Under the pieces are notes generated by a model. That model worked only from the letters and a program-made list of their open reading frames with translations, made no database searches and was not told the origin of the DNA. The position numbers and the translations under genes were made by a program. Of a DNA stretch of 64,000 bases, positions 1,740 through 61,204 are shown piece by piece. Source of the DNA: Barthelona sp. PCE (Eukaryota); assembly GCA_040285745.1 (NCBI GenBank), contig JAUFOR010000006.1, positions 372,001 to 436,000 on the forward strand, given 5' to 3'. How positions within the stretch are numbered: the stretch's first letter is position 1; each line of letters opens with the position of its first letter.

Positions 1740-3833
1740 TTACTCAAGATCAATATTGAAGCGGAACGACCACTCTGTGTCGATAGACCATTGAGGGAAG
1801 TTTGTAGCCCAAGCAGTGTTGAACATATTAGCGTGAAAACCTCCATTCTCAACATCAGGAATTCTATCTTCAAAATTGAGAAGGTGTGGCGACTCGGGAG
1901 CAACAAGCGCAGAATCAAGTGGGGTGATCTTCATTCCATCAAAACCAAAAGAGTCACAACCGTGCAAGAACTGTCCTGCACTCTTGACATTGTTGGAAGG
2001 TGAAACACGTGATCCGAGCTTTTGAATGAATGCACCAGTGCGTACGATTGGGTTGAACTCCATCCACAACGCCTCGGGAATACGTGTTGTCTTCTTTCCG
2101 AAGAAGTCAGCTCTAACTGAAATCTTGCCATCCTCCGAAAACGTATAGTAAATAATAACAGAATCAGGCTTGCCATTGTTCGGATCGACACATTCTTCAA
2201 GCGTTCCTGTGACGACAATTTCAAGGGTAGATTCAACGGAAACAGCATAATACACGTTGTCTCTGACAAATCGTGCTTCACATCGTTCAACATGATAATT
2301 CTGGAAGCCCCACTTCCCGAAATCCATACGCGTCCACGATTGGCTTGGAATGTTATAGTACTTGTTAATGTACTGATTGAGAAAACGCTTATAATCGCTG
2401 TTATTGAACGTCTGATACATAACACCGCCGATGCGGTTCGAATCGGACACGATTGGATTTCCTTTGTAAGTAGCAGAGATGATGCTTCCGTCAGCCCCAA
2501 CCCTGATATCCTCAAAGTGATGGAACGAAAATCCACGATTCATATCAGCAGCACTAATGTATTGGGATAAATCCAAACGCGCAAACCCAACTATTTCATC
2601 GAGATCCCGAGTGAGAACAACGCGCAAGTGATTGCTTGGCTCAAGCATGCTTAAAGCGTCTTCGACCAATGCCCGATAGCTGCGCCAAACACCTTCAACA
2701 AATTGAATATCCTTATCTGCCCTGTGTTTTGTAAAGTCAGCGTTAAGCCAAACATCTTCATACCCGGGCATGTAGACCTTGTTATCGATCGACCACGTGT
2801 GCTCCATGGGTCGGGACATCATAAGAATAAAATCATCATAGGCAGATACAGGAATGAAATACCTCAATTCCTCAACACGACGACATACGGCACGGTGCGC
2901 TGCCATTCGGATGGGATCGCTACCATACCCATGAATCCAAGAGTCACCAATCTCTTTCGTGACAACAGGTAGCTGGCCCTTGTGCATGTGTGCATATTCA
3001 AAAAAAATGTCGTATGAAGAAGCCTTGATAACAGCATTTGGATATCTGCGTGTCAGGTTATGGTAATAAGAGCGAATGAGTTCAGAAGAATCAGGTGGGC
3101 CGTGATTGTCGCCAAGGAAGTAGAAGTCGAGTGCTTCAGTCCAGTCAGTGCTATTAAGAGCTGAGGGGCCACCATATCCAGCATGATGATAAGCAACAAC
3201 GAGCTCACCATCAATACCATCAGGACGCCACACAAACATCTTCTCAGTGTCTGGCCATGAGCTCGCCTTGTTGATGCCCACGTGCATAGAATGTACATTA
3301 TGCCTGTTAAGAATGGGTACTGCGCCGGCAGTGACACCTGGAACGTCCTTCAATGAGAAAACTCCACTGTTCTTAATGCCAAGCACGTTTGCTAGATCAC
3401 GCACAATTGATAGGACACCGTCTACCATGAACTCACATGACCCCTCGGCCTCTGGGTTGTATGGAAATGCATGCATCATGATATACCCAGATTGCATGTG
3501 GTCTTTCATGATGGTTTTGTTGGCAGCCGAAACTGCATCGCTGTCAAAGAATTTCTTAATCAAGTAAGGCTGTGTAGTGTACTTAAATTCGTTTTCAGAG
3601 CCTTTTAATTCTTCAATTAATCTAAAGGCACGAGGAAACAATTTCTCGTTGTATAAAGTCACTACATCAGCTGGAATTGCAGTAAAACCGATATCCAAAT
3701 GATTTTGAAATAACAAGTGCACTTTTTTGATGTGTGGATAAACTCCAGTATCAACAACTGGATCCACCCACGAATAAGCACATGAAAAGCATAAGATAAA
3801 TAAGAATGATACAATTAAGAACGCTCTACCCAT
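1740..3833 (-). CDS. Secreted/lysosomal glycoside hydrolase, GH38-N-like / DUF5054 family
   Basis: Signal peptide; VHLLFQNHLDIGFT metal-binding start, DVPG, DNHGPP, LPVVTKEIGDSWIHGYGSDP, EHTW, C-terminal NTAWATNFPQW. Confidence 0.75.
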   Translation of the reverse strand: MGRAFLIVSFLFILCFSCAYSWVDPVVDTGVYPHIKKVHLLFQNHLDIGFTAIPADVVTLYNEKLFPRAFRLIEELKGSENEFKYTTQPYLIKKFFDSDAVSAANKTIMKDHMQSGYIMMHAFPYNPEAEGSCEFMVDGVLSIVRDLANVLGIKNSGVFSLKDVPGVTAGAVPILNRHNVHSMHVGINKASSWPDTEKMFVWRPDGIDGELVVAYHHAGYGGPSALNSTDWTEALDFYFLGDNHGPPDSSELIRSYYHNLTRRYPNAVIKASSYDIFFEYAHMHKGQLPVVTKEIGDSWIHGYGSDPIRMAAHRAVCRRVEELRYFIPVSAYDDFILMMSRPMEHTWSIDNKVYMPGYEDVWLNADFTKHRADKDIQFVEGVWRSYRALVEDALSMLEPSNHLRVVLTRDLDEIVGFARLDLSQYISAADMNRGFSFHHFEDIRVGADGSIISATYKGNPIVSDSNRIGGVMYQTFNNSDYKRFLNQYINKYYNIPSQSWTRMDFGKWGFQNYHVERCEARFVRDNVYYAVSVESTLEIVVTGTLEECVDPNNGKPDSVIIYYTFSEDGKISVRADFFGKKTTRIPEALWMEFNPIVRTGAFIQKLGSRVSPSNNVKSAGQFLHGCDSFGFDGMKITPLDSALVAPESPHLLNFEDRIPDVENGGFHANMFNTAWATNFPQWSIDTEWSFRFNIDLE

Positions 3834-9059: not shown

Positions 9060-9385
9060 GTTGAGTGTTCAACAACCATAAGAAATAAAAAAAATGATAA
9101 TATTTGAACGACAGGCTCATGTGGTTTCATTACAAACTGTATTTCCTTGATTTCAAGGGTGTATAGTCAAATTTTACAACATATTACACCATGCAAAAGT
9201 GAAAAACTTTTCATATACTCATTTAAAAAATTCACATAGAAAATCAATCGTACAGTAAAACTACCCCTGCCAAACATTAAAGTGCTGTATTTTTTAACAA
9301 TAACAATTATGAGTGAACAACAAACTAAACTACAAAAATCTGCTCAACATCACAATTCCTCCCTTTACTCAATGCACAATATCAT

Positions 9386-11527
9386 ATGCCAAGATTGTTA
9401 CAAAAAAGCCATATAGTTCACAATGAACAGCATGAGCCCTTCATACTGACTGTTGATGATAAAACACGAAGTTTTGCCTATATAACAGTAGATGAAGAAT
9501 GTACAACAAACAGGGGAACATATTACTGCATTTCGACCTCGAACTACGATTATAATAGGGGAATTATGAGCGGAAAGTGTTTCAAAGACAATTTATTTTA
9601 TTCCTTTACTATTGCTCACAAAATTGATGATATTTGCTCGGTAAGTATATATTTTTGGTATATTACTGCAAATGGGCCACATGAAATCTCTAAAACAGTT
9701 GAATTTGATGCTGTTTTATCAAGTAGTGCAAAGTGGCAAGATTATAAACTATTTTGCTACACCCATCAAACTTTTTTCCTTATTGAAAATAGATCTCTTG
9801 AAATTACATATGCGCAACTAGAAGGAAAAAAGGTGGAAATTGAGTTAAATAATTTCGAACTCATCAGTCAGTCAACTTTTGTTTCTGCTTTTCCCATTTT
9901 TTCATATGAAGAGGGTGGAATATTCGGTTGTTGCCCAGTGTATTGTTATTTAGATAGTAATCTACTGGTACAGCCATTGAACAGTGGAGATGTCGATAAA
10001 ATTGATTTTTTTATTGACGTTTTAAACGCTGACTGTATGTTGCATGCTACAGAAGATACAGACGGGTATTCTCTTAGTTATTTTGTTCTTTCTGATGGAT
10101 GTGATACCATTGATATGTACAGTGCATTCCCAGAACTGAAATCATGTTTGACCAATGCAAGTATCGCCATAAAGAAGAAGCATGCAAACTGGGATAACCA
10201 CTTTGACTTAAATCATTGTCTTTACATGGTCATTTTTGAAGTTTCCCATGATGTTTTTGAATTCTCTTTGATTTTTAGGAATATGCTATTTTATTGCCGT
10301 GTTAATGCAGATGGAACCACTGAAGTTAATGATTTTTCACATTCATTGCATAGATGTAGGCTTTTCTTACCAAATATTTCGCCAGACAACTTTCAAAGAA
10401 TGCAATCGTTCCAATTTGAAACAAAAGTACCTGAAATATTAGGTATTACAGAAAGCGAATGTGGTATTCGTTTGAAACATTTTGTCTTCCGTTGTAGCAC
10501 TAACGTTTTTTTTGATATGAATCTCAATATATATCCTTGTAAGCATATTTCAAACAATATTTTTGTATTCACAGCCAATAATACCTACAACAAATTCTTA
10601 GGTGCAACTGTTTTTATCAACACTATCGATGAAACAGTGAGAGTCTTCAATCAAATAGAGAGGTTTGCCTCAGTTCCCTGTGACCCTATCATCAATAATC
10701 AATTTATGCTGGTTTCAACCCACCAACCGGATAGGACATTTATTACCTATGTGATAGACTATACTGCATCCATCGAAGGAAACTTATTACCAACAATTGC
10801 TCTTCCTGGGCAGATAATAGCACATAGTTACAGCGATGAAATGAATCTAATCTGTTGCTTACAGGCTGGTTCAAATTCAAGTTATGGAATTGTACATTTG
10901 TTTAATTATGAGGGTGTTTTACTTAATAACATTCGCGTGACTGAAACATATGATAGCCGCACCATGTTTTTTGTTGATAATTTGATTTTGTTGCAAAATT
11001 CTACTTCTATTATGATTGTTTCATTCAATGAAAAATTCAATTTACAAATTGAACATAGCCACACTTCATCACCTTTTTTTTGTTATAACCCGTTCAAAAT
11101 GGAGCTTTTTGGTGTTATAGATGGAGTTGAACGTGTGTGTCCGTTAGATGAATACTTTAACTTTAGCAGTCAAATGACTGTTTTAAATATTCAAAGTATG
11201 AGTTTGAGTAATAGTTATCCGATAGTTTTCTTTACAGAAGAATGGGCAGCAAGAGGTTCTGCTATTATACACTACTGTGATAAAGACTTTGAATTAAAAT
11301 TTTTAGGGTTTCCAAACTTTGATTATAGTAATAATCGTGTTGTTTCTATGATCGCATCACCTGAAGAGCGTAAATATCTAAAGCTACATATCAAAGAAGA
11401 ACCATTACGCTTTATTTTAAGGAAATCAAACAACGGTATTGACGACAGTGAAGTTTTTGAATACAATTTTGCAGAAATGATGAAAAACTTTAAAGTGATT
11501 ATGGCCAATGTAAATTTGTCCTTATAA
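9386..11527 (+). CDS. Orphan beta-rich protein, family member 2
   Basis: 713-codon ORF starting MPRLL; C-terminal EYNFAEMMKNFKVI motif. Confidence 0.8.
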   Translation: MPRLLQKSHIVHNEQHEPFILTVDDKTRSFAYITVDEECTTNRGTYYCISTSNYDYNRGIMSGKCFKDNLFYSFTIAHKIDDICSVSIYFWYITANGPHEISKTVEFDAVLSSSAKWQDYKLFCYTHQTFFLIENRSLEITYAQLEGKKVEIELNNFELISQSTFVSAFPIFSYEEGGIFGCCPVYCYLDSNLLVQPLNSGDVDKIDFFIDVLNADCMLHATEDTDGYSLSYFVLSDGCDTIDMYSAFPELKSCLTNASIAIKKKHANWDNHFDLNHCLYMVIFEVSHDVFEFSLIFRNMLFYCRVNADGTTEVNDFSHSLHRCRLFLPNISPDNFQRMQSFQFETKVPEILGITESECGIRLKHFVFRCSTNVFFDMNLNIYPCKHISNNIFVFTANNTYNKFLGATVFINTIDETVRVFNQIERFASVPCDPIINNQFMLVSTHQPDRTFITYVIDYTASIEGNLLPTIALPGQIIAHSYSDEMNLICCLQAGSNSSYGIVHLFNYEGVLLNNIRVTETYDSRTMFFVDNLILLQNSTSIMIVSFNEKFNLQIEHSHTSSPFFCYNPFKMELFGVIDGVERVCPLDEYFNFSSQMTVLNIQSMSLSNSYPIVFFTEEWAARGSAIIHYCDKDFELKFLGFPNFDYSNNRVVSMIASPEERKYLKLHIKEEPLRFILRKSNNGIDDSEVFEYNFAEMMKNFKVIMANVNLSL

Positions 11528-11647
11528 TCGCAACTATAAAAAATCTATAATGTCAGGCTGCTGTTACTTGCATAATTAGCAGGTTGAATCTCACTTTCTT
11601 TTCACATACAAAAACATGCAAATTTGAATAATACTTTGTAGAAGGTT

Positions 11648-11882
11648 GTAAATTTACTTCGGAGTTAGACACTTGTACGGGAGTTGCGAGCTCCCTCGAG
11701 TGCTGTGCTTGCACTGAGAATTGTTCTAGAGCCCCTTTTTTTAAAATAAAAGGGGGAGAAAGAAATGATGTAAGTACTCACAGAGTACAGGAGGGAAGAC
11801 CGCGTGTCTACTCCTCAGTAGATTTACTCCTACGAAATAGCGTGTTATTCACAAGCGTGCCATATTTGCGGAGTAAACATAT
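11648..11882 (+). ncRNA. Candidate structured non-coding RNA of unknown class
   Basis: GC-richer island in AT-rich intergenic DNA. Long closing helix 11648-11672/11804-11827, internal hairpins, second hairpin 11823-11877. G-U pairs work only on the + strand. Confidence 0.5.
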
Positions 11883-12092
11883 GATTGTATCCTTAAATAA
11901 AAACAAATTTTTTCTTTTTTCTTTTTCTTTGAAATAGTCATTTTTACAAAATGATTAAACCACAATAATCTACAAAATGATATTTAAACCTTATTTTGTC
12001 CACAAAGAAAATAGTACATATGATACTTACCATCTGATATGAAAATAATATTTGAGATAATGTATTCTTTGGTTGAATTCCGTCTAAGAGAC

Positions 12093-12165
12093 AACCAATT
12101 AGCTCAGTTGGAAGAGCGTTCGGCTACGAACCGAGAGGTCAGGAGTTCAAGTCTTCTATTGGTTA
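12093..12165 (+). tRNA. trnR-ACG: tRNA-Arg (anticodon ACG)
   Basis: Cloverleaf: acceptor AACCAAT/ATTGGTT, D arm GCTC-AGTTGGAA-GAGC (A20 Arg identity element), anticodon arm TTCGG-CTACGAA-CCGAG, T arm AGGAG-TTCAAGT-CTTCT. No encoded CCA; T run about 10 nt downstream. Confidence 0.93.
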
Positions 12166-12849
12166 CTAATCTCTTTTTTGTAGTATTGGATTTTTTTGCT
12201 TGTTGAATGATGGACATACATTCCGGATTTCTCTTTTTTTTCAATTTTTTATTAGGTGGATTACCCGACCTCGATCTTAGGAACTTATTCACGCCATCCA
12301 ACTATATATCTGTCAGTAAACATGCATGTATCCGAGAGAACTCAGCCCTTGTGAAGTCAGATTTATGCTAAGTTTGCTTCTTGTTTCTCTTCAATCATTT
12401 TGTTGTAATATCAATAATTTAACATTTGCAGACCATAAAGCTTCCATTATTTCTAATCGATTCAGTGAATACAGATTGTTATCCCTAGTATGTAAGAGCT
12501 TGTTCGCTGAAGTGTTAACTAGATCAACAAGGATTTTTAGTTCCATGTATATGATGATTGCAAGTAAGAAAACTCATGTGGCAAAAAAGTTTGGAAAAGG
12601 ATGGTTGGTGATTTTTTATTTCTTATCACTTTCAGTTACATTTATGACTTCATTGAAACAAGTGGCATGGTAAAACATCAATGAAAGTGATAACAAAGTG
12701 GTCAACTCAAAAATGTTCTATATCAAAAATTGTTGCTGTGGAGCAACTAAGAATATTTGGATGAGTTGAAGTTTGGAAAAAATTAAGTTGGAAAGAAAAA
12801 GTAGACAAGAGAAAAAAAAGGATTATTAAATTAAACCTCGTTACCAACT

Positions 12850-13420
12850 TAAGAACTCGCAGCAACTTTTTACATAGTTTTCATCCAAATCTCACTGAGG
12901 AAAGCGGCAACTCAAGTTCCACCAATCATGTGGATGGATAAAAAGGTTCTAAAACTTCATGCTTGATTTTCAAAACTTTTAGTGAACAAAATCCATCAAT
13001 TAATGATACTAAATAGTATGTATCTGTCTTCGTGTTCAAAATCTCAAGAACTATGTTTTTTGAGTATAGTATCAGTATGCTAACGATATCTATTTTGTCG
13101 TCAACTGGAATTACATAACCTGACTGGCTTCTTAGCACATGAACATTCTGAGACACATTTGAATATTTATATGTTCCCTTTTTTCATTGTGATGTTCAAC
13201 AAAACAATGCCTTGCTTGATAAAAAAATGCAATACACTCATTGAAGAATGCAGCCTATGAAAATCCTTTTTAGCATTCGTACAATCATGAAACCTAATGA
13301 TACTTGAACAGAATTTATACCGTTTGAAAACCGCTTCAGTTCTGTCAACGTGAAAAACTCCTGAATTAGAATGAATGTGAGGGCTTTAACAAGGCATTCC
13401 ATATTATGAAACAAATGTGC
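12850..13420 (-). pseudogene. Possible decayed gene fragment (perhaps of the orphan family)
   Basis: Short protein-like minus-strand ORF pieces (12926-13156, 13238-13486) separated by stops and frame changes. LVELELP after the 12926 stop recalls PIEIELP in the neighbouring paralog. Confidence 0.25.
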
Positions 13421-13512
13421 CCAAATGCAAGATATGCAAAAGAGAAAAGAGAAGGTGAACGTAGTACATTCCTTTTCTTCTTTCACTTGGTCCTTTTAGT
13501 TAGGTGTTTATA

Positions 13513-15453
13513 ATGCCACGCACAAACCCAATTATTCACACCAATTATGGTCATATTTTGCATTTTCACACTCACTCAATTATAGTTCCAGCTGGGCAAT
13601 CTAAAAAGGCAGAACATGATACTACGTTCACGGAATCTGCATTTATAGTGATTCCCAACCGGGAAATACGAATAGAACTGCCAGTATTATGCAACAAGTT
13701 TTTTATGTGCAGGAATTGTAACTTGTTTTATGAGACCGATAATGGGAAGCTTATCATAACTTTTTACGAGTTTAATGGAACAGAGTTTGAGGTTCAGCAA
13801 ACGGTCGATTTCAGTCAATTAGTTGATCTTAAGTACTCAATCATGACAGCGATTGATAGTGGAACTATATTATGTTTTATGTATAAAAGTGTGTATGTTG
13901 TTGATTTAGTTGAAAGGAAGTGTATTGAGTTGGAATATTCATTGGTAAGTAATTTTGGTAGGACTACAATATTGCTTGATGAGCAAGAAGAAAAGTACGT
14001 AACTCTTCTTCTCGTTGATGATTCCATCAAAACGTTTGAAATACCAGTTCCATATAATCTTAATTACAAATTGGTCGAGGTAGCCAACTCTATGAATCCA
14101 GAAGTTTTGTTCATCGGAGACGATATCGTTTACATAATGTCAGTTGTAAACTATGACTCCACACCTCAAATGCTAATTAATGAGTTCAACGTTCAATTGC
14201 AAATGTCAGGAAAAATGCAGTGTACACAATGCTTTGTGTTTGATGAAGTTTATTATTTCACATCAAATTTGCGTTTAGTTTCCTTCTCCTTCAAACGTGG
14301 AAAAGTTGAAAAGTGCGTTGAAGTGAGTAACACAAGCTTCCAACATTACACTATGATAAATCAAGAGCTATATGGTAATTACGGTCATGTTATGCACCCA
14401 ATTGAGACCATTCAGCGCAATATAAGTGGGTTTTGTCTTCTTCCGAATATGCCAATCACCATCAATACGTCTGATGTTTTTAATCCTATGCTGATTACGA
14501 ATAGAGGTGTGATGCACATTGACATATACAACTGTAAGAGCCCTCGTGGCATTATTCATGGTGTGGTGGAGGGAGTAGAGCGAACATTGCACAGAGTGGT
14601 AGCCAACCCGTCTGATGGCGAGATCGTCTACACTCAAATTTATTTTGACGGAAAAGAAACATATACTGCATGTAACGGGGCAACCGAGGTTGCAAAGATC
14701 TGTCATGTGTTTGAAGGCAGTGATTATCTTTTAGAATGTGTGAGAAATACCCTTTTCTACATAAATGAATCATACGATGATGTATTTCACATTAATGGTG
14801 CTGAGTTGAGAATGCCTGAAAATATGTGGTTCTACACAACATGTGTCGATAGTATCGTGTGGATTGCTGGTAGTAGCTACACTGGATTGGCTATACTAGA
14901 TGATTCAGGGAATGTTGTTGACTTCAGTACGTTTGCTACTGCAGTTGATATGTATCCCTGTCCATATGCTAACATATACGATCCATATTGTGCGCTTCAG
15001 ACCGAGGATGAAATGTTTTTCATTAGATACAGTCCTGAAAATAAGACTTTTAAAAAAATTTGTGTTGGCCGCTACAGTAGAAAGCCTTTTTCACATTTTT
15101 TTATTGATGAAACAGTGTTTTTGAATAACAAGAGATTGTATAGATCAAGTGAAGATTGTGTTACACCTATTGAAATTGAGCTTCCATGGGTATGCGAGTG
15201 TTCACCTGAATATTCGTATCATTCTGTAGTGCGAGGAACGCTATCAAGGCTACATATGCGGTTGGATGGATATAATATGGTTGTTGATACACTGATTTTT
15301 GATGGAGATTATTCATGTTTCACGATAGAGACCAAGAGTTACAATTTGTTAACAATTTTGGCAGAAAACAGCGTATTCTATCCAATTTCAACTATTACAG
15401 ATGTCCAATTGTGTAGAGCGTCCATTTTCAGTTCTTTTACACATTCGATGTGA
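13513..15453 (+). CDS. Orphan beta-rich protein, family member 3
   Basis: ATG 13513 (MPRTNP...), 646 codons; C-terminal KSYNLLTILAENSVF motif. Confidence 0.8.
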   Translation: MPRTNPIIHTNYGHILHFHTHSIIVPAGQSKKAEHDTTFTESAFIVIPNREIRIELPVLCNKFFMCRNCNLFYETDNGKLIITFYEFNGTEFEVQQTVDFSQLVDLKYSIMTAIDSGTILCFMYKSVYVVDLVERKCIELEYSLVSNFGRTTILLDEQEEKYVTLLLVDDSIKTFEIPVPYNLNYKLVEVANSMNPEVLFIGDDIVYIMSVVNYDSTPQMLINEFNVQLQMSGKMQCTQCFVFDEVYYFTSNLRLVSFSFKRGKVEKCVEVSNTSFQHYTMINQELYGNYGHVMHPIETIQRNISGFCLLPNMPITINTSDVFNPMLITNRGVMHIDIYNCKSPRGIIHGVVEGVERTLHRVVANPSDGEIVYTQIYFDGKETYTACNGATEVAKICHVFEGSDYLLECVRNTLFYINESYDDVFHINGAELRMPENMWFYTTCVDSIVWIAGSSYTGLAILDDSGNVVDFSTFATAVDMYPCPYANIYDPYCALQTEDEMFFIRYSPENKTFKKICVGRYSRKPFSHFFIDETVFLNNKRLYRSSEDCVTPIEIELPWVCECSPEYSYHSVVRGTLSRLHMRLDGYNMVVDTLIFDGDYSCFTIETKSYNLLTILAENSVFYPISTITDVQLCRASIFSSFTHSM

Positions 15454-28411: not shown

Positions 28412-30649
28412 ATGGAGAACGGTAATCTTAACATTAACCACGCCAGCGTCAAATCCTACATCGAAGAGAACTGTACGTTCTACGATGGTGACGCTTCTTT
28501 CCTTGCCGGTGCCACCGAGCGTACTGTCGCTCTTTGGGACAAGATCAAGGACCTCCTTGTTGAAGAGATCAAGAACGGTGTTCTTGATGTCGACACTTCC
28601 ACAGTTTCTGATATCGATGCTTTCCAAGCTGGTTACATCGAGAAGGACATTGAGACCATTGTTGGTCTTCAGGCCGATGCCCCCCTTAAGCGTACCCTTA
28701 AGCCTTACGGTGGTCTTCGTGTCGTCCAAGCCGCTGCCAAGGCTTACGGTTACACACTCGATGCTAAAGTTGAAGAGATCTTTGACAAGTACGTTATCAC
28801 CCACAACGATGGTTGTTTCGCCATGTACGATCCTGAGATCCGTGCCTGTCGTACTACTGGTATCCTTACTGGTCTTCCCGATGCCTACTCTCGTGGCCGT
28901 ATCATAGGTGATACTCGTCGTGTCGCCCTTTACGGTGTTGATGCTCTTATTGCCCAAAAGCAATGGGATAAGCACAACCTCATGCCCATCTCTATGGATG
29001 AGGCTGACATGCGTCTTTCCAAGGAGATCATGTTCCAGATCAAGGCTCTCAAGCAACTTAAGAACATGGCTGCCAGTTACGGTTTCGATATTTCTCGTCC
29101 CGCTGAGACTGCCGCTGAAGCCATTCAGTGGTCCTACTTCGGTTACCTCGCTGCCATCAAGCAGTCCGATGGTGCCGCTATGTCATACGGTCGTGTTTCC
29201 CGTTTCTTCGATATCTACATTGAGAAGGATATGAAGGAAGGCCGCCTTACTGAGGAGCAGGCTCAAGAGCTCATTGACCACTGGGTTATGAAGCTTCGTC
29301 TTGTCCGTCACCTCCGTACTCCCGCTTACAACGAGCTCTTTGCTGGTGATCCCACATGGGTTACCCTTGTCCTCGGTGGTTGTCTCGAGAACGGTGATAA
29401 CGGTGTCTGTAAGACTGATTTCCGTATCCTCCAGTCTTTCTACAACATGGGTCCTGCCCCCGAGCCCAACATTACTATCTGTTGGAACACTGAGGGCCGT
29501 ATGTCTGAGCACTTCAAGACTTTCTGTGCTAAGGTTTCTGTCGAGACTTCTTGTATTCAGTACGAGAACGATCAGCTCATGCAGGAGGCCGGTTACGGTT
29601 GCGATTATGGTATCGCCTGTTGTGTCTCTGCCATGAAGATGGGTGAGCAGATGCAGTTCTTCGGTGCCCGTTTCAACGCTGTCAAGCTTCTCCTTTTCGC
29701 CTTCAACGGTGGTAAGGATGAGATCAAGAACAAGCAAGTCGGTCCCGTCTACCCCGTTTTGGAGACCACCGATTACGATGTCGTCATGGAGCGTTACATG
29801 CTCTACCTTGACTGGTTGGCTGAGGTCTACGTTCGTACCATGAACATGATCCACTACTCCCACGATACTTACTTCTACGAGTCCCTTCAACTCGGTCTGC
29901 ACGATACTTTCGTCCACCGTTTCATGGCTTTCGGTGCTGCTGGTGTTTCCACCGTTGCTGATGCCTTCTCTGCCATGAAGTACGCTAAGGTTTCCATCGA
30001 GCGCGATCCCGAGACTGGTCTCACCACCGGTTTCCCTATTGAGGGTGATTACCCTAAGTTCGGTAACGATGATGATCGTGTTGATTCCATTTACTGTTTC
30101 ATTGTTGATGAGATCACTCGCAAGCTCCGTCGTCACAAGACTTACAGAGATGCTGAGCACTCACTTTCCCTCCTCACCATTACTTCCAACGTCGTTTACG
30201 GTACCAAGACTGGTGCTTGTCCCGGCCGTGGTGCTGGTGTACCTTTCGCTCCTGGTGCTTCCCCCGTTCACGGTGCTCCCGTCAACGGTGCTTTCGCCGA
30301 GCTCAACTCTCTCGCCAAGATCTCTTACGATTCTTGCCGTGATGGTATCTCACACACAGCTGGTTTCTCCACTAGTTCCCTTGGTAAGACTACTGAGGAG
30401 CGCATTGAGAACCTCAAGATCCTTCTCGAAGGTTTCTTCTCCAAGAGGGTTCACAACGGTAAGCGCCAAATGGGTTTCCACGTTAACGTTAACGTTTTCG
30501 ACAGAGAGATTCTCGAGGATGCCATGGCTCACCCCGAGAAGTACCCTGCTCTGACTATCAGAGTTTCTGGTTACGCTATCCTCTTCATTCGTTTGGATGA
30601 GGCCAAGCAACGCGAGGTTATTGCTCGTACCATCCACTCACAGATGTAA
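28412..30649 (+). CDS. pflB: Pyruvate formate-lyase (formate C-acetyltransferase, glycyl-radical enzyme)
   Basis: [33 protein letters not shown], catalytic [23 protein letters not shown], glycyl loop [12 protein letters not shown]. Strong C/T third-position bias suggests high expression. Confidence 0.97.
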
Positions 30650-30761: not shown

Positions 30762-33700
30762 TTATTCATTCATTTCACTCCGTTCAGAACATAAAGATAT
30801 AACGTTTTCAATTGTCTGATCCAGCTGCTGAATGTGCGAATTCATATCGTTATCGTAGTCCATTGAGCTTTCACTTTCAGACTTAAACGTTTCCTCAGCA
30901 CGACGCTTCAACAGAGCATCAAGCGTTGTTCTTTGCACGTTATTCAAGTGCACAGTATCGTTGCCCTCATACATACTTGATATCTCATTACTTGCATCGA
31001 TGGCAGAATCCAACAAAAACGATTGGAAATGGGATTCAGGCTTTAACAAAGATTTTAGCATCAAATTAGACTGGACCGGAGAGGTAGAAGCGGTGGTAAA
31101 AAGCTTGTTTTGCTTGTTTTCATGGAAATCAAATTCGTAGGATCCCATCGTTGAGAAACTTGAATTCGAGTGTGACTTGGACATATCTGATGATGAAACG
31201 TCCATTTTCATTGCATTCATGACAACAGGCTCCATCTTATCGAGCGGTTGTGTATCAATCCAAGCAGGTAACTTTTTTCCAACAACTTGTGAAATACTGA
31301 TTTGCTTCTTGAAAAAAGTCTTTTCCTTCGATTTCTTAGCCTTTTCATGCTTTTCTTCGCTTGCAGGGAAGAATTGATAAGGATTCTGCGTCGAGTCACA
31401 GTCGTAACGTAACTTAACATTGTCCTTTGTGTTATTCTGCACAAAAGAATCGATATTAAGAAACACAAGATACTTGGGCAGAGTCATGCCAGGTACAAAG
31501 CTTGTCTTATTACCGACGACATGCGTGGCAACAACGACAACTAAATATCCAGTTTTTTCACTGATAGTAACCGGTTTGCAAAATTCAACAGCAGTAGAAA
31601 TATCACTATGCAACTGCAATGGCATCTGGCTAAAAAGTCCGCTTGATTTAAAGTGTTCGTAGTCTGAAAGATTTCGTAGGGACAGATACATGTAGCGTTC
31701 GTGTGTACCGGCTGCGATACGCGCACATTGCTGTTGTCTACATGCATATATGCGAGACAGAACACCCTGGGCTTCTTGGGCGACGTACACTGCATGAGAA
31801 CTCTTAACCCAGTATAAAGACCTCTTGAAAAAATTATCATCAAGTAGGAGCTGAACCTTCCGCAGACGATCATACCACTCCTGGTTCTCCCATGGCGTAT
31901 TCATATGCATCTCCGAGCTGATAGTCTCACCGCTTTCTTCGTTGATGGACGTCATCGATGGATCTGTCTGATTGTAATTGGATGGAAATGGATTGGATCT
32001 GGGGTTGATGTAGGATTCAAACATTTTGAACTGCTCCTCAGCCTTGCCATTGTCAACAAATAAACAGTATTGGTGAATTCCACTGCGGTGACTCATGATA
32101 CAACTTGGCAGCGCTGGAATAGACCAGCAAAATGAATGCTTGAGTTGAAAGATCTCATCACAAGTGGCGTGCAGGTCGTACAGACCATCAAAGCTGGTGA
32201 ACAAATCAACGGTTTCAATGCTGAAGTTGAAGAGCAGCTTCTGAAAGTCCTCCGTCCCCTGGAATGTAAGGAACCGATCTCTTTCATCAGGTATGACGTT
32301 CGAAGCAAAGAAAAAGCCGAGCTTGTACGTGGAAGGCAACGCTTTTGAGTAGAGGTCGTTGAGGGGATATATGCTTGGATTTCTAGAAAAAATGACGATT
32401 TTTCCCGGTTGATTCAATTCACAACCTTCTTCACGCTTTAGTCTTGTTCCATTCATTAAAAATGAGTGAGAAATCGAATTATACTCTTCGAATGGAACGC
32501 ATCTGACTTTGTCATTCTCAAATGAAAGCACCATTGTGCTGTCATAGTGAGTATTGTTGAGCGTTGTGATCGGCTGCCAGTTCCATGGTTTGACGCCAGT
32601 GGTATGCGACATTGTAGTCATCATCATATTGTATATATCATTGGCGTCAGACTCACGGAAGAAGGCCTTTAGCATTGTTGACGTCTCATCGTCCATATTC
32701 ACAAACATTTCAAATCTCTTTTTGTACTGCAGGAATGACGATGCGCTCATGATAATGATCTCATTCTCCTTGGGTATCAGTGGGTCAATGTGTTTGATGG
32801 TGATTCGGAACGAGTCATGGATCTGGAAATCAAAAAAGGGAAGCCTGTCCATGTTGACGATGCAATCATTTTCATTCTGAAAGAAATTGGTCATCAATGG
32901 TATGGTGCTAGATTTTGGTGATATAAAAGCAAAAGATTCATCTTTGACTATATTGGCGCAGTATTTATCATAAAGGTCTCTGATACTAGTCTGTAGATGA
33001 TAGAACTGATAAGAATCCAAGATACCATGGCAGACAATAGGCTCATCCATGCACAATGACTCTTCACTAACAGATACTTTGTAACGATTTGCAATGTCAC
33101 GGATGTGGTCTATGTACTTCTTGTAGAAGAACCTGTCGTATATAGTAAAACAAAGGTATTTCCTAAACTTGTTCTTGAGTAAGCACATATCACTTGCGAG
33201 AATGGTAATACTAACCTTCATGTTTGAGAAACTAAACTCCAGAGGAATGCCCTTTTTCCTGCAAAATCTGGATATACTCAACAGATAATCCGTCATGTGA
33301 CACAGGTTAAGTTGGTGCTGAGTGAAAGTGGGCAGAACCAATGAGCGTTTTGTTACTGCAGTAGTGGTTTTGATATACTTAATAATCTGTTCTGCACGTT
33401 GAGGTGAGCACTTGATGTGGAAGTATCCACTCATAAAGTCTTCACTGCTTGTGTTACAGATCTTACCTGGATCAAAATCAAAGAATTCGTCCTCAATGAT
33501 CTCTCGCATTTTTTCTTTGTTCTCTGAGTAAATGAATTTGATTTCCACACTGGGGGAACTGTGCTTGATAAACTGAATGATCTGATCAGGATGAGCATCG
33601 TGTGCAGGGTTGAGAGGCAGCAATTTAGCAACGCAACGGAACTCGGTTCTATTTAGATAACTGATCAAACGAGATGCAAATTGTGTTGTTGGTCCGAATG

Positions 33701-35645
33701 GTCCGCTGACGTTGACTAGAGACTGCTTTTTGTTGTACTTATATATCACGTTAGGTGGTGTATTGAACCTAAAATCAAGCGATGAATGGTCTTTTCCTAA
33801 AGGGATACTGTATCCTACAGTTAAATTCTTGATTAAAAAGCTTAACATGTCTTTAATAGGTCGAACGTCCAAAACAATGCATAGATTCCTGTATCTCGAG
33901 CATTTCATCGTGGTTCCCATAAGGGAAATATTCCAAGTAGCAGTGGATCCCTTATTTTTGTCATTCAGCCACATTTTCTGAATATGGTCGAATTTTTCAA
34001 AACACAAGATAGTAATCCAATTCAAACGCAAGCTGTCTTTGTCCACTAGGAGTTCATCCAGCATTTCCATAAAATATGCTCCATCGATCATTTGGGCGTG
34101 GAAGTGTGGAAGCTTTGGAATATTTGTGATTGTAGACTCTGCGGACAACATAGAAGAGTTGATAATATCAGTGTAGCTCATTGTCTGCGATGACTGAGAT
34201 AGTTGGAGCATACTGGTTGACAAGTCCAATTCAACCTCTTCTTCATCGCTCTTGGCATCAACCATATCCATTAGACTATGTGCAATTTCTGATTTTGCAT
34301 CTGATGGTAGCTGAGTCGGAGAGATAAAACTCTGGGCGTTTGTCATAGCAATGTTGTTTTTCGAGAAATACTCTGATACTGAAGAGATTGATTCCTTGTT
34401 CTCCCTCTTAAGTCGCGACTCAGCCGACATAGTTGGTGATATACGATCACATTGCACCATCTGCAACACGCGTTTACGATTTGCGTCCACCCAAATAAAA
34501 GATCCTTTGGGTAGAAACTGTGGAATACACAAGCGCAAAAAGTCTACAATTTGCTGATCGTCGATTTCATCTGTAGGGACTTCAAATTCAAACATGTCAT
34601 AAATAATAGGGTGTGTTTGGAAGAAGCGCTGGATACTCTCCAACGTCTTTATGCATGAATCGGATGAGTTGACAGGGGCAGTCAAGCTGAGGATAGCTGT
34701 GTTGCGTGCGAACAGAGTTATGCTGCCGCATGGCTCCTTGGCGTATTTGATGGTATCGTTTAGTTCTATGTCAACAGCCAAAACGCTCATTATGTACTTC
34801 AGTCTGAAATTAACTGCCACCCTGAAGTTCTCTCTCCATCTCACTAGTGGGTCACGACACGAGCATAAGAACGCAATATCCGCGACGTGAAGTGTCGTTT
34901 CGACAAAATTCGGTGTAAGGGAAGGACCAACGCGGTGGAGCTTAAAACCCGCTTCATCAGTGATCTTCAACGTGTTTCTAAGATCTTCTTCGTTGTTTAA
35001 GTGAATAAAGCAATTGGGTGGCCTGCCATCAATTGCAACAACATTACCGTGTTGGATGAGCCAGTCGAGTATATCTTCGTTTTCAAGTGCTTGTTTGAGT
35101 TGCAGAATACAAGATCCCACGCCCCACACCGGGTGGAAGTTGGATGGAGCAGAGAAGAGAGAGTAATCTCCTAAAACAAAACGCCGATGCCACTTATGAA
35201 AGTTTTTGGCGTGTTGGGCTGAATCGAAGAAAAAATAAAAGTAATAACGGTCTGGCTTACCAACCGCTCCTTTCACAACGCCGATATCATACACAGTCTT
35301 GGAGAATTTCCAATTATCCTCCGTGGATGAGGCTAAAACATTCCTCGAAGTCGACATGTATAAAAGCAATTCTCTGATTATTTCATCACTTATACGGGGG
35401 AAATAACCAACAAAAATACACGTGTCACGATCAGTAGGAAGCTTCCGGTAATACATTTTTGTGTTACGTCTGTTGGCTGGCTTTTTTTTGGACTTACGTT
35501 GCTTCTTTTGGGTATTATTTGCGGAAGCATCTTGATTTATATTAGTATTCTGTACACTGATCTTTTTTGCACCTTGAATAACTGTGCAGCTTGGTATTTG
35601 TTGATTCTGTGGTACAAAATACGGTTCTTTCCTTGGATTATTCAT
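30762..35645 (-). CDS. Large RRM-containing protein with degenerate C-terminal PARP-like domain (PARP14-like layout)
   Basis: N-terminal RRM (CIFVGYFP...YYFYFFFDSAQHA) and a second RRM-like unit (CFIHLNNEED). C-terminal HERYMYLS...HFKSSGL, VATHVVG, TLPKYLVFL align by eye to the PARP ER.LFHG...I...GF, .VLVG, YPEYLI. motifs. Confidence 0.55.
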   Translation of the reverse strand: MNNPRKEPYFVPQNQQIPSCTVIQGAKKISVQNTNINQDASANNTQKKQRKSKKKPANRRNTKMYYRKLPTDRDTCIFVGYFPRISDEIIRELLLYMSTSRNVLASSTEDNWKFSKTVYDIGVVKGAVGKPDRYYFYFFFDSAQHAKNFHKWHRRFVLGDYSLFSAPSNFHPVWGVGSCILQLKQALENEDILDWLIQHGNVVAIDGRPPNCFIHLNNEEDLRNTLKITDEAGFKLHRVGPSLTPNFVETTLHVADIAFLCSCRDPLVRWRENFRVAVNFRLKYIMSVLAVDIELNDTIKYAKEPCGSITLFARNTAILSLTAPVNSSDSCIKTLESIQRFFQTHPIIYDMFEFEVPTDEIDDQQIVDFLRLCIPQFLPKGSFIWVDANRKRVLQMVQCDRISPTMSAESRLKRENKESISSVSEYFSKNNIAMTNAQSFISPTQLPSDAKSEIAHSLMDMVDAKSDEEEVELDLSTSMLQLSQSSQTMSYTDIINSSMLSAESTITNIPKLPHFHAQMIDGAYFMEMLDELLVDKDSLRLNWITILCFEKFDHIQKMWLNDKNKGSTATWNISLMGTTMKCSRYRNLCIVLDVRPIKDMLSFLIKNLTVGYSIPLGKDHSSLDFRFNTPPNVIYKYNKKQSLVNVSGPFGPTTQFASRLISYLNRTEFRCVAKLLPLNPAHDAHPDQIIQFIKHSSPSVEIKFIYSENKEKMREIIEDEFFDFDPGKICNTSSEDFMSGYFHIKCSPQRAEQIIKYIKTTTAVTKRSLVLPTFTQHQLNLCHMTDYLLSISRFCRKKGIPLEFSFSNMKVSITILASDMCLLKNKFRKYLCFTIYDRFFYKKYIDHIRDIANRYKVSVSEESLCMDEPIVCHGILDSYQFYHLQTSIRDLYDKYCANIVKDESFAFISPKSSTIPLMTNFFQNENDCIVNMDRLPFFDFQIHDSFRITIKHIDPLIPKENEIIIMSASSFLQYKKRFEMFVNMDDETSTMLKAFFRESDANDIYNMMMTTMSHTTGVKPWNWQPITTLNNTHYDSTMVLSFENDKVRCVPFEEYNSISHSFLMNGTRLKREEGCELNQPGKIVIFSRNPSIYPLNDLYSKALPSTYKLGFFFASNVIPDERDRFLTFQGTEDFQKLLFNFSIETVDLFTSFDGLYDLHATCDEIFQLKHSFCWSIPALPSCIMSHRSGIHQYCLFVDNGKAEEQFKMFESYINPRSNPFPSNYNQTDPSMTSINEESGETISSEMHMNTPWENQEWYDRLRKVQLLLDDNFFKRSLYWVKSSHAVYVAQEAQGVLSRIYACRQQQCARIAAGTHERYMYLSLRNLSDYEHFKSSGLFSQMPLQLHSDISTAVEFCKPVTISEKTGYLVVVVATHVVGNKTSFVPGMTLPKYLVFLNIDSFVQNNTKDNVKLRYDCDSTQNPYQFFPASEEKHEKAKKSKEKTFFKKQISISQVVGKKLPAWIDTQPLDKMEPVVMNAMKMDVSSSDMSKSHSNSSFSTMGSYEFDFHENKQNKLFTTASTSPVQSNLMLKSLLKPESHFQSFLLDSAIDASNEISSMYEGNDTVHLNNVQRTTLDALLKRRAEETFKSESESSMDYDNDMNSHIQQLDQTIENVISLCSERSEMNE

Positions 35646-35846: not shown

Positions 35847-37145
35847 ATGTCAAAAAAAGAGGAAGCACCTAAGCGTGTAATCGGAACTCCGACTCGACTG
35901 CAACGTAAGATTCACGTAGAGATAGATCCTGCGACGGGAGAGTTAACAGGACTTCCTAAACATTTAAGACGACAGATGAGAGTTGATGGAGGCAAATCAT
36001 CGGCCTCTTCATCCAAGAGGAAGGTCATTTCAGAGCCTACAGGCTTTCAGCATCGGGTACATGTTTATTATGATCATGACCGTCAGAAATTTGTTGGTTT
36101 GCCCAAAGAATGGGAAGATCTTCTACAGGCCAGTGGTATTACAATTGAGGAACAGCAGGCACATCCGGACGAAGTGCTTGAATCTTTGAAATATTTCACT
36201 GATGGCATGCCTAAGCCTAGACCCCCACCACCAAAGCTCGCCGAGATCTCAGGAAAGCTCAATGCGGCCGCGCGTATCTCCCCCCGCGATCCCCGCAAGC
36301 TGTACGATTCTATGCGGCGCATTGGACAAGGAGGATCCGGCTGCGTGTATGTGGGAAATCGAATTAAGGACGGAAAGCGTGTCGCTATCAAGACGACAGC
36401 TATCACACAGCAGGTTGACTTACAGGCTTTGAAGAACGAGATAGCAATGGCGAGGACATCGCAGCATCCGTACATTGTCGAATATGTTCAGTCGTATTTG
36501 TGTAGACCGACGAACGAGCTCTGGATTGTCATGGAGTATTGCTCCGGTGGATCATTGACACAATTCTTATCAGCGAACCAGAGCTTGGAAGAGCGTGAGA
36601 TCGCAACCATTTGTCAACAGGTGCTGGAGTCTTTGGAATTCTTACATTCATCATATCGTATTCACCGTGATATTAAATCGGATAATATATTAATGACTGA
36701 GCAGGGAGATTGCAAACTGGCAGACTTTGGATTCTGCACTCAACTTACGGCTGAAAGCCATACGAGGCATTCAACGGTCGGAACGCCATATTGGATGGCA
36801 GTTGAGCTCATTAAGGGCGCGCAATACGATCACAAAGTTGATATATGGTCGCTTGGAATATTGTTATATGAACTCTGCGAAGGTCAACCACCTTATCTAG
36901 ATTTGCCACCTTTGCGTGCCATTTTCGTTATTTCAACACGAGGAGCACCAAATCTAAAGGAACCAAATAGATGGTCAAGCGAGCTACGTGATTTTATTAG
37001 TTTGTGCGTCAAGATCAATCCAGAAGAGCGACCCGAGGCAAGTCAATTGTTGCAACACCCGTTTTTGCAGAAGTACGACACAACAGATTCATCTATCCTT
37101 GTACCTAAGGTTGATCGCACGAGAGAGAAATATCGTTTATTATAA
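35847..37145 (+). CDS. PAK: p21-activated (Ste20/PAK) kinase with two CRIB motifs
   Basis: CRIBs IGTPTRLQRKIHV..D...GLP and ISEPTGFQHRVHV..D...GLPKEW; kinase motifs GQGGSG, VAIK, HRDIKSDN, DFGFC, VGTPYWMA. ATG 35847. Confidence 0.93.
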   Translation: MSKKEEAPKRVIGTPTRLQRKIHVEIDPATGELTGLPKHLRRQMRVDGGKSSASSSKRKVISEPTGFQHRVHVYYDHDRQKFVGLPKEWEDLLQASGITIEEQQAHPDEVLESLKYFTDGMPKPRPPPPKLAEISGKLNAAARISPRDPRKLYDSMRRIGQGGSGCVYVGNRIKDGKRVAIKTTAITQQVDLQALKNEIAMARTSQHPYIVEYVQSYLCRPTNELWIVMEYCSGGSLTQFLSANQSLEEREIATICQQVLESLEFLHSSYRIHRDIKSDNILMTEQGDCKLADFGFCTQLTAESHTRHSTVGTPYWMAVELIKGAQYDHKVDIWSLGILLYELCEGQPPYLDLPPLRAIFVISTRGAPNLKEPNRWSSELRDFISLCVKINPEERPEASQLLQHPFLQKYDTTDSSILVPKVDRTREKYRLL

Positions 37146-60793: not shown

Positions 60794-61204
60794 TTAAACG
60801 TTGATCTGCTCAACTGCAGTGCAAAGGGTTTCAATCTGGTCATTCAAGTGAGAATTCTTGCGCTTCTCGAAAGAGACTGCAAGTACTGCACGACTAACAC
60901 CGGAAGCACGGCCGAGAGCGACCTTAGAGGGAACATAAACGTAAGGAACGTTCTTATCCTCGCAGAGATAAGGTAAATGCATAACAATCTCGAAGGGAGT
61001 AGCATCTGCAGCAACTACAACGAGCTGAGAAAGACTCTTGTTAAGGTTCTTAGCGGTTTCATTGGCTCCACGACGGATTTGACGCTCAGAAGCTTGTTGA
61101 ACAAGATCAAGAATAGTAGCAGTCAGTTCTTCATCAGCAAGTGGACGGGCACGGGGATCGCTCTAAATGTAAGCATCTTCTAAGTAAAGAATGAAACAAA
61201 CCAT
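60794..61204 (-). CDS. SNU13: Snu13/15.5K (L7Ae family); exon 1 coding part is ATG only (61202-61204), exon 2 is 60794-61162
   Basis: Spliced translation MSDPRARPLADEELTATILDLVQQASERQIRRGANETAKNLNKSLSQLVVVAADATPFEIVMHLPYLCEDKNVPYVYVPSKVALGRASGVSR. Confidence 0.95.
61163..61201 (-). other. Spliceosomal intron, 39 nt, directly after the start codon
   Basis: ATG|GTTTGT...GCTTACATTTAG|AGC; needed to give Snu13 its start codon. Confidence 0.88.

Follow-up and report, generated by a model that had tools for sequence, protein, structure and literature searches.

A long imperfect hairpin in the largest ORF-free gap of a Barthelona sp. PCE contig region: a candidate gene for a small non-coding RNA

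The hairpin locus and its surroundings

The element described here occupies positions 11648-11882 of a 64,000-nt stretch of Barthelona sp. PCE DNA (contig JAUFOR010000006.1), which was analysed as a whole and is referred to below as the window. It sits in a 1985-nt gap without ORFs (11528-13512), the largest of its kind in the window. The G+C content of the window is 39.8%, and long ORFs without introns lie close together in it: 29 gaps separate the ORFs of 150 aa or more, 23 of these gaps measure less than 400 nt, and the next largest (the maximum among the other 28) measures 1240 nt. None of the ORFs within the gap at 11528-13512 has a family match or a protein-like look. The hairpin at the core of the element starts 116 nt 3′ of the stop codon of an upstream 713-aa ORF, and 211 nt separate the end of the element (11882) from a tRNA-Arg(ACG) gene. 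G+C stands at 0.39-0.41 across the element versus 0.24-0.29 just downstream. A first-pass annotation, made from the sequence letters alone, had placed a T-rich tract and a tRNA downstream of the element, and both are indeed there (Table 1), with T-rich tracts of this kind also present in other intergenic gaps of the window. A scan of the type used for bacterial promoters and terminators, which does not suit a eukaryote, gave zero terminators. We also considered a decayed gene copy lying between flanking genes that are tandem paralogues, and rejected it because the best BLASTP E-value in the comparison of the flanking genes was only 0.05.

The genome of Barthelona sp. PCE, with which the base composition and gene density of the window agree, is listed at 10.2 Mb, 40.3% G+C and 5064 proteins in Table 1 of PMC11316075, a source that also assigns the Skoliomonas strains TZLM1-RC, GEM-RC1 and TZLM3-RCL to a barthelonid-plus-skoliomonad clade of metamonads. 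A PAK-type kinase ORF of the window (35847-37145) has its best named relatives in these three strains at 49-50% identity, and one EukProt transcript is closer, at 57% identity. The window also encodes a full-length pyruvate formate-lyase (28412-30649, + strand; PF02901, E 1.8e-177, plus a glycine-radical domain) and ciliary assembly proteins, which together fit an anaerobic flagellate.

Table 1. Features of the hairpin locus and its 3′ surroundings, in window coordinates
Feature	Position	Strand	Remarks
Core feature: one imperfect long hairpin ('rod'), ~185 nt, centre near 11744	11643-11831	unsettled	minimum-energy and ensemble folds
Basal helix, 5′ arm: GTAAATTTACT-TC-GGAG-T-TAGACAC	11648-11672	+	first 10 nt form a palindrome; pair probability 0.90-0.98
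Hairpin interior	11673-11803	unsettled	rod continuation (-76.1 kcal/mol) or local hairpins (-74.8 kcal/mol)
Basal helix, 3′ arm: GTGTCTA-CTCC-TC-AGTAGATTTAC	11804-11827	+	pairs with the 5′ arm
Second hairpin, ending in ACA	11823-11879	+	shares 11823-27 with the basal helix
TCCTTAAATAAA, 11/12 match to the Giardia ncRNA 3′-end processing motif	11890-11901	+	weak context
T-rich tract (T6, T6, T5, T3)	11908-11930	+	read from the sequence
tRNA-Arg(ACG) gene	12093-12166	+	neighbour of the element, not part of it; only tRNA gene in the window

Architecture and stability of the fold

The robust feature of the locus is a single long imperfect hairpin and not a multi-branched RNA. Read from the base up, its near-perfect basal helix of 22 bp is made up of segments of 11, 5 and 6 bp, with a 2x2 loop after the first and a bulge after the second, the two arms forming a 25/24-nt duplex interrupted by this one internal loop and this one bulge. 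The outermost stem (11648-58/11817-27) contains 11 bp, one of them G-U, at a pair probability of 0.98, and the other segments of the helix are GGAG(T)/(A)CTCC and AGACAC/GTGTCT. Above the basal helix, the rod continues through GCG/CGC, CCCTC/GAGGG, GTGCT/AGTAC, a 9-bp helix and TTCT/AGAA to the apical CCCCTTTTT/AAAAGGGGG. When one arm is aligned with the reverse complement of the other, 59 columns are Watson-Crick, 7 are wobble, 20 are mismatches and 16 are gap columns.

Every stem named in the first-pass annotation was found where it had been placed, both in the sequence and in the helix list with its pair probabilities, including the hairpins drawn inside the basal helix (11679-84/11690-95, 11732-39/11748-55 and 11774-79/11783-88). 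In our folds, the interior either continues the rod or forms local hairpins at 11679-95, 11700-17 and 11774-88, while an apical hairpin (11732-56), which contains a T7 run at 11736-42, is common to both arrangements. Enforcing the local hairpins costs no more than 1.3 kcal/mol, and they are a genuine alternative to the rod. A switch-like RNA had been one of the options raised earlier, and the competing structures do lie within 0.7-1.3 kcal/mol of one another. Folded alone, the interior gives a z-score of -3.06 on the + strand (1/200 shuffles) and -4.42 on the - strand (0/200). It is thus still unusual when the basal helix is left out, and the signal therefore exceeds that of a pair of terminal repeats.

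A second hairpin follows on the 3′ side, with a lower stem of 8 bp (11823-30/11870-77), an AU-only middle stem and an upper stem of 7 bp (11840-46/11854-60, three G-U). Its stems are present as described earlier and its ACA (11877-79) lies 16 nt after the upper stem, but the hairpin is not exceptional when compared with shuffles, having a z-score of -1.16 when folded alone on the + strand, where 27 of 200 shuffles fold as well. It had also been proposed that this hairpin and the basal helix are mutually exclusive. Their overlap at 11823-27 is real, but the minimum-energy fold holds both in part: 8 bp of the outer stem are kept, the 3′ hairpin retains 6 bp of its lower stem, and the two adjoin with 0 nt in between. 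Forming all 8 bp of the lower stem comes at a cost of 0.7 kcal/mol. A third proposal, pairing of the 5′ end of the element with its 3′ end, is possible, but it costs 5.3 kcal/mol and is the by-product of a repeat. A palindrome occurs twice in the element in the same orientation (GTAAATTTAC / GTAGATTTAC), the first 13 nt of the element (GTAAATTTACTTC) recurring at 11818-30 (GTAGATTTACTCC) with 11/13 positions identical, and it is because of this 13-nt repeat with a 10-nt palindromic start that three segments are able to pair mutually. We rejected GTARATTTAC as a recurring protein-binding site, since it has 8 matches at up to one mismatch in the window versus 10.4 expected.

Across 11640-11890, the + strand folds at -78.8 kcal/mol (z -4.13) and the - strand at -73.1 kcal/mol (z -5.65), and on neither strand does any of 200 dinucleotide shuffles fold as well. 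To scan the whole stretch, 532 segments of 240 nt were taken at a step of 120, one of them registered on 11648; each was folded in both orientations, giving 1064 folds, and energy was regressed on composition. Among the 1064 window-strands, the locus ranks first on the - strand and third on the + strand. It is still first (z -5.51 on +, -5.44 on -) after the top 14 window-strands have each been shifted by up to 60 nt to their best register, the runners-up then being found at 32468, inside an ORF (z -4.51), and at 3548 (z -4.26). The former, 32468-32707 on the + strand, ranks second in the window for stability among 240-nt folds and lies antisense to a 1627-aa ORF (30762-35645, - strand). With this coding-region segment at a z-score of -4.5, strong folds evidently also arise in this DNA where nothing points to an RNA gene. 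The fold at our locus is real and the best of the window, yet it is not set apart as a class of its own.

The same coding-region value, along with the fact that the fold rests on one sequence, could be taken to mean that the hairpin is a chance fold without biological meaning. We regard this as extremely unlikely, however, given that 0/200 shuffles match the fold on both strands, that the locus comes first in the window and that 22 near-contiguous bp form across 131 nt. Complementarity in the flanks (11615-42 with 11832-60) is not above chance, and an extension of the hairpin into these flanks, as seen in a 493-nt fold, was rejected because 217 of 500 shuffles equal it. Elsewhere in the same 2-kb gap, 12619-12697 contains a 25-nt inverted repeat that is 80% complementary and has a 29-nt spacer; as a structured RNA this hairpin was rejected, its fold not being significant (z -1.67 and -1.57).

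With regard to strand, we see a slight lean to +. In the minimum-energy folds, + is favoured by 6.9 kcal/mol and the G-U pairs number 9 on + versus 4 on -, while the shuffle z-score for 11640-11890 is better on -. The earlier statement that G-U pairs favour the + strand overstates a weak bias: in a register-fixed alignment of the arms, 8 positions pair only on + and 5 only on -, a difference that is not significant. The T7 run sits at the hairpin tip on the + strand, where the - strand reads T4-A-T4. Runs of this kind are expected to stop RNA polymerase III, so that an RNA transcribed from the + strand would probably not be a full-length product of this polymerase. Downstream of the element, TCCTTAAATAAA resembles the 12-nt 3′-end processing motif of Giardia ncRNAs, the consensus of which was taken from PMC3510501. 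This was rejected as support for an ncRNA gene, since the match has one mismatch and the pattern is not enriched in the window, where a relaxed form of it has 8 matches versus 14.5 expected and the commonest motif variant, at up to two mismatches, has 12 versus 8.1 expected. The best copy of the motif in the window is CCCTTTACTCAA at 9361-9372 (+), which is one base off the commonest Giardia variant and lies 14 nt before an ATG at 9386; the 276 nt preceding it are not unusually structured (z -1.17).

Comparison with known RNA families

We searched Rfam release 15 at both gathering score and relaxed E-value thresholds. In agreement with the earlier failure to fit the element to U1-U6, U3, SRP, RNase P/MRP or hammerhead RNAs, 286 nt at the locus gave zero matches at E<=10 on both strands. 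The whole window at gathering score gave tRNA only, and searches of 11400-12200 at E<=10 and of the whole window at E<=5 gave nothing credible.

Box H/ACA RNAs have a single-stranded hinge with an H box (ANANNA) and an ACA whose distance is 14-16 nt from the top of the pocket above it and 3 nt from the 3′ terminus; in guides, the pocket is an open internal loop whose strands pair with the target around a uridine. The first-pass annotation had raised a divergent long H/ACA RNA. An RNA of this class could here be either snR30/U17-like or a single-hairpin guide (11823-11882) behind an unrelated 5′ hairpin. The order of hairpin, hairpin and ACA, with the ACA 16 nt below an upper stem, does resemble this class, but other features of the element differ from it. 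There is no hinge, the two hairpins directly adjoining each other in the minimum-energy fold, and no ANANNA starts between 11788 and 11878 on the + strand. The strands of the supposed pseudouridylation pocket, AAAUA/UAUUU, can pair together through five A-U pairs, the 3′ hairpin is ordinary in being no better than shuffles, and no Rfam H/ACA model matches at E<=10. In snR30/U17, the motifs m1 (AUAUUCCUA) and m2 (AAACCAU) lie in the internal loop of the 3′ hairpin and are almost invariant in 14 species, and non-fungal U17 RNAs measure 203-240 nt (Table 1 of PMC7601244), a range into which the 235 nt of the element falls. Neither motif is found at up to one mismatch inside 11648-11882, and the snR30-like reading is not supported. 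The best m1- and m2-like words, at 11824 and 11874, have two mismatches each (7/9 and 5/7 matches); although they are located on the 5′ and 3′ strands of the 3′ hairpin, respectively, they form its lower stem and not an open loop. On balance, we consider a very divergent H/ACA RNA of either kind very unlikely.

Among the universal RNAs, RNase P/MRP contains conserved regions CR-I and CR-V, which form the P4 pseudoknot; their consensus patterns are absent on both strands, and the P2-like and P1-like 3′ strands, between which P4 would be expected, are just 2 nt apart. SRP RNA gave no Rfam match at E<=10 on the 286 nt of both strands, with the helix 8 motifs as scored by the models. For snRNAs, there is no Sm site (RAU3-6GR) inside 11648-11882 and no Rfam match; ACAGAG occurs a single time, at 11780, with no AGC within the following 58 nt. 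The stretch 11853-68, which we take to resemble the 3′ end of vertebrate U6, was rejected as such because the Rfam U6 models give no match.

In ciliate telomerase RNA, a long-range helix closes around internal hairpins and is followed by a 3′ stem-loop and a T tract, and the closing helix, internal hairpins, 3′ hairpin and U tract of our element resemble this layout. The template of a telomerase RNA spans more than one telomere repeat. Within 11600-11935, the longest match in either sense to TATATGGTCT, TTAGGG or TAGGG is 6 nt, and the whole window has no telomere-repeat match of at least 10 nt; the element thus differs from a ciliate-type telomerase RNA in having no template for any of these repeats, as well as in its internal T7 run, and the telomerase reading put forward earlier finds no backing. 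The repeats are those given for Barthelona sp. PCE (TATATGGTCT) and for Skoliomonas (TTAGGG) in PMC11316075. It could still be argued that the models of Rfam miss an RNase P/MRP, SRP, spliceosomal or telomerase RNA that has diverged to an extreme, as the snRNAs of Giardia are described as too divergent for standard searches (PMC3510501) and the organism has a spliceosome, to judge from the 39-nt intron in its L7Ae-family gene. With zero Rfam matches at E<=10 on either strand and with the features set out above missing, this too is very improbable.

Box C/D RNAs, including U3, carry a C box (RUGAUGA) close to the 5′ end and a D box (CUGA) close to the 3′ end, next to a terminal stem. No C box is present in the element; its single TGATG (11766) lies 3′ of its single CTGA (11714), and the basal helix is flanked by neither of them. 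Upstream of the tRNA, 11940-12046 (+) has a possible box C/D-like layout, with a 7-bp terminal stem (11940-46/12040-46), AUGAUUA at 11951, CUGA at 12034 and a would-be guide that holds ATACTTACC (12024-12032), the same sequence as at the 5′ end of canonical U1. We rejected a box C/D identity for this stretch because the fold of 11890-12092, between the element and the tRNA, is ordinary (z -0.10).

Possible origins and roles of the hairpin

An L7Ae-family gene at 60797-61204 (- strand; PF01248, E 1.6e-23; spliced ORF of 123 aa), which we take to be Snu13-like, has a 39-nt intron right after its ATG (61201-61163, GTTTGT...GCTTACATTTAG). This shows that the organism splices, with short metamonad-type introns in which branch point and 3′ splice site are fused, a spacing known from Giardia (PMC6679479). 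The hairpin could be part of an unannotated transcript, either as a structured long intron of the metamonad type or as a UTR structure of the upstream gene. It starts with GUAAAU on both strands, and its - strand ends in CUAAC + 5 nt + AG, close to the fused motif of the confirmed intron (CTTAC + 4 nt + AG). In PMC6679479, long introns of diplomonads and Trichomonas are described as folding into stem-loops; such diplomonad and parabasalid introns share with the hairpin the GU start, the large internal stem-loop and, for the - strand, a CUAAC-type branch motif fixed a few nt before the AG. However, the splice signals of the hairpin would be buried in a helix, whereas the same source forces them to be single-stranded, and the flanking exons have no open frame, with zero ATG-started frames surviving the junctions 11648/11817 and 11648/11821 (+) or 11827/11657 (-). 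Nor is the pattern rare in the window, where it has 3 matches versus roughly 6 expected by our own estimate. As for a UTR, the hairpin begins 116 nt after the stop codon, and same-strand gaps are often shorter than 125 nt here. Membership in an intron or UTR is, in our assessment, most improbable.

A different origin is suggested by the arms of the hairpin. Over ~25 nt these are near-perfect, in contrast to the more weakly paired interior, a pattern that miniature inverted-repeat elements also show, and the length of ~185 bp would also suit a MITE-like or foldback relic, or another DNA-level palindrome, that has no RNA function. Both strands fold about equally well and the G-U asymmetry is not significant; an inverted repeat of DNA origin would give an equal thermodynamic signal on both strands. 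Yet the copy count that had been suggested as a check for a MITE shows the element to be single copy within 64 kb: allowing up to three mismatches, its 25-nt arm matches nowhere else in the window, and word-7 BLASTN of 11600-11935 against the window matches T-rich low-complexity sequence only. No target-site duplication is seen at 11643/11831 (...TGTAGA / ACGAAA...) or at 11648/11827 (...AAGGTT / TCCTAC...). Furthermore, the interior is unusually structured on its own, and only 4.46% of the genome is given as repetitive (Table 1 of PMC11316075). We consider a relic of this kind unlikely, though the likeliest of the rival readings; if the hairpin were one, the locus would be ordinary. In scans of metagenomes, the C-terminal 299 aa of the upstream protein gave 42 pattern matches, zero of them confirmed, and the arms of the inner helix, used as a gapped pattern, gave zero matches.

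Giardia, a relative in the Fornicata, has Dicer and Argonaute and makes small RNAs of ~25-27 nt. It is conceivable that the hairpin is likewise a precursor of small RNAs, from which a Dicer/RNase III-type nuclease would cut out the 25/24-nt basal duplex. Long-hairpin precursors of small RNAs (plant-type MIRNA and hairpin-RNA loci, or the structured ncRNAs from which Giardia small RNAs are cut) resemble it in being long and imperfect, in having one near-perfect duplex of ~25 bp and in coming from a single-copy locus between genes, but here the duplex forms the lowest part of the hairpin. A search of literature listings found nothing on Dicer or Argonaute in this organism, and we regard a precursor role as quite unlikely.

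Given a fold that is statistically rare, present once in the window and matched by no Rfam model, we tentatively favour a single-copy gene for a hairpin-shaped small non-coding RNA of no assigned class, the transcription, strand, ends and function of which we infer. This reading is favoured by the most stable composition-corrected fold of the window, equalled by 0/200 shuffles on either strand, and by a position in the longest ORF-free gap (1985 nt), which is also home to the only tRNA gene. The G+C contrast, the single copy, the want of a target-site duplication or a surviving intron frame and the greater stability on the + strand point in the same direction. Against it stand the unsettled strand, the z-score of -4.5 of a coding window and a Giardia-type 3′ motif that is not enriched. 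If the locus is such a gene, its functional unit would be the irregular hairpin at 11643-11831 (~185 nt), to which a 3′ extension of at most ~50 nt may belong. The two ends of the hairpin pair into the near-perfect 22-bp basal helix, enclosing ~130 nt that can either prolong the rod or form three to four short hairpins. It is presumably the fold, and not a guide or template sequence, by which the RNA would act, either as a rod that binds protein or as the substrate of a double-strand-specific nuclease.

Barthelonid metamonads are deep-branching anaerobic flagellates, and the genome considered here is among the smallest of free-living eukaryotes. That a 2-kb gene-free gap with the best fold of the region should be idle in so compact a genome is unlikely. 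Our literature searches on barthelonids found no description of their non-coding RNAs, and a passage search of PMC11316075 gave no mention of tRNA, snRNA or non-coding RNA. The RNA-seq published for the group used poly(A) selection (PMC11316075), which may leave out an RNA of this kind. Should transcription and conservation of the hairpin hold, the lineage would gain a new RNA, which might also show whether small-RNA pathways exist in barthelonids. More speculatively, and with rather low probability, it could represent a new, barthelonid-specific class of structured ncRNA of ~190-240 nt, whose interior switches between rod and multi-hairpin forms of near-equal energy and which may serve as a conformational scaffold or as a source of ~25-nt small RNAs.

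Two further intron-like sequences were noted near the locus. At 11545-11609 (- strand), 33 nt from the hairpin, a 65-nt pattern reads GTATGT...CTGAC + 5 nt + AG, with no convincing exons seen around it. At 13493-13527 (- strand), a 35-nt sequence reads GTTTGT...CTAAC + 4 nt + AG, and excising it brings an ATG at 13554 into frame with a 93-aa ORF of the - strand. This ORF overlaps the start of a + strand ORF at 13513 and is without a family match, so the arrangement may be due to chance.
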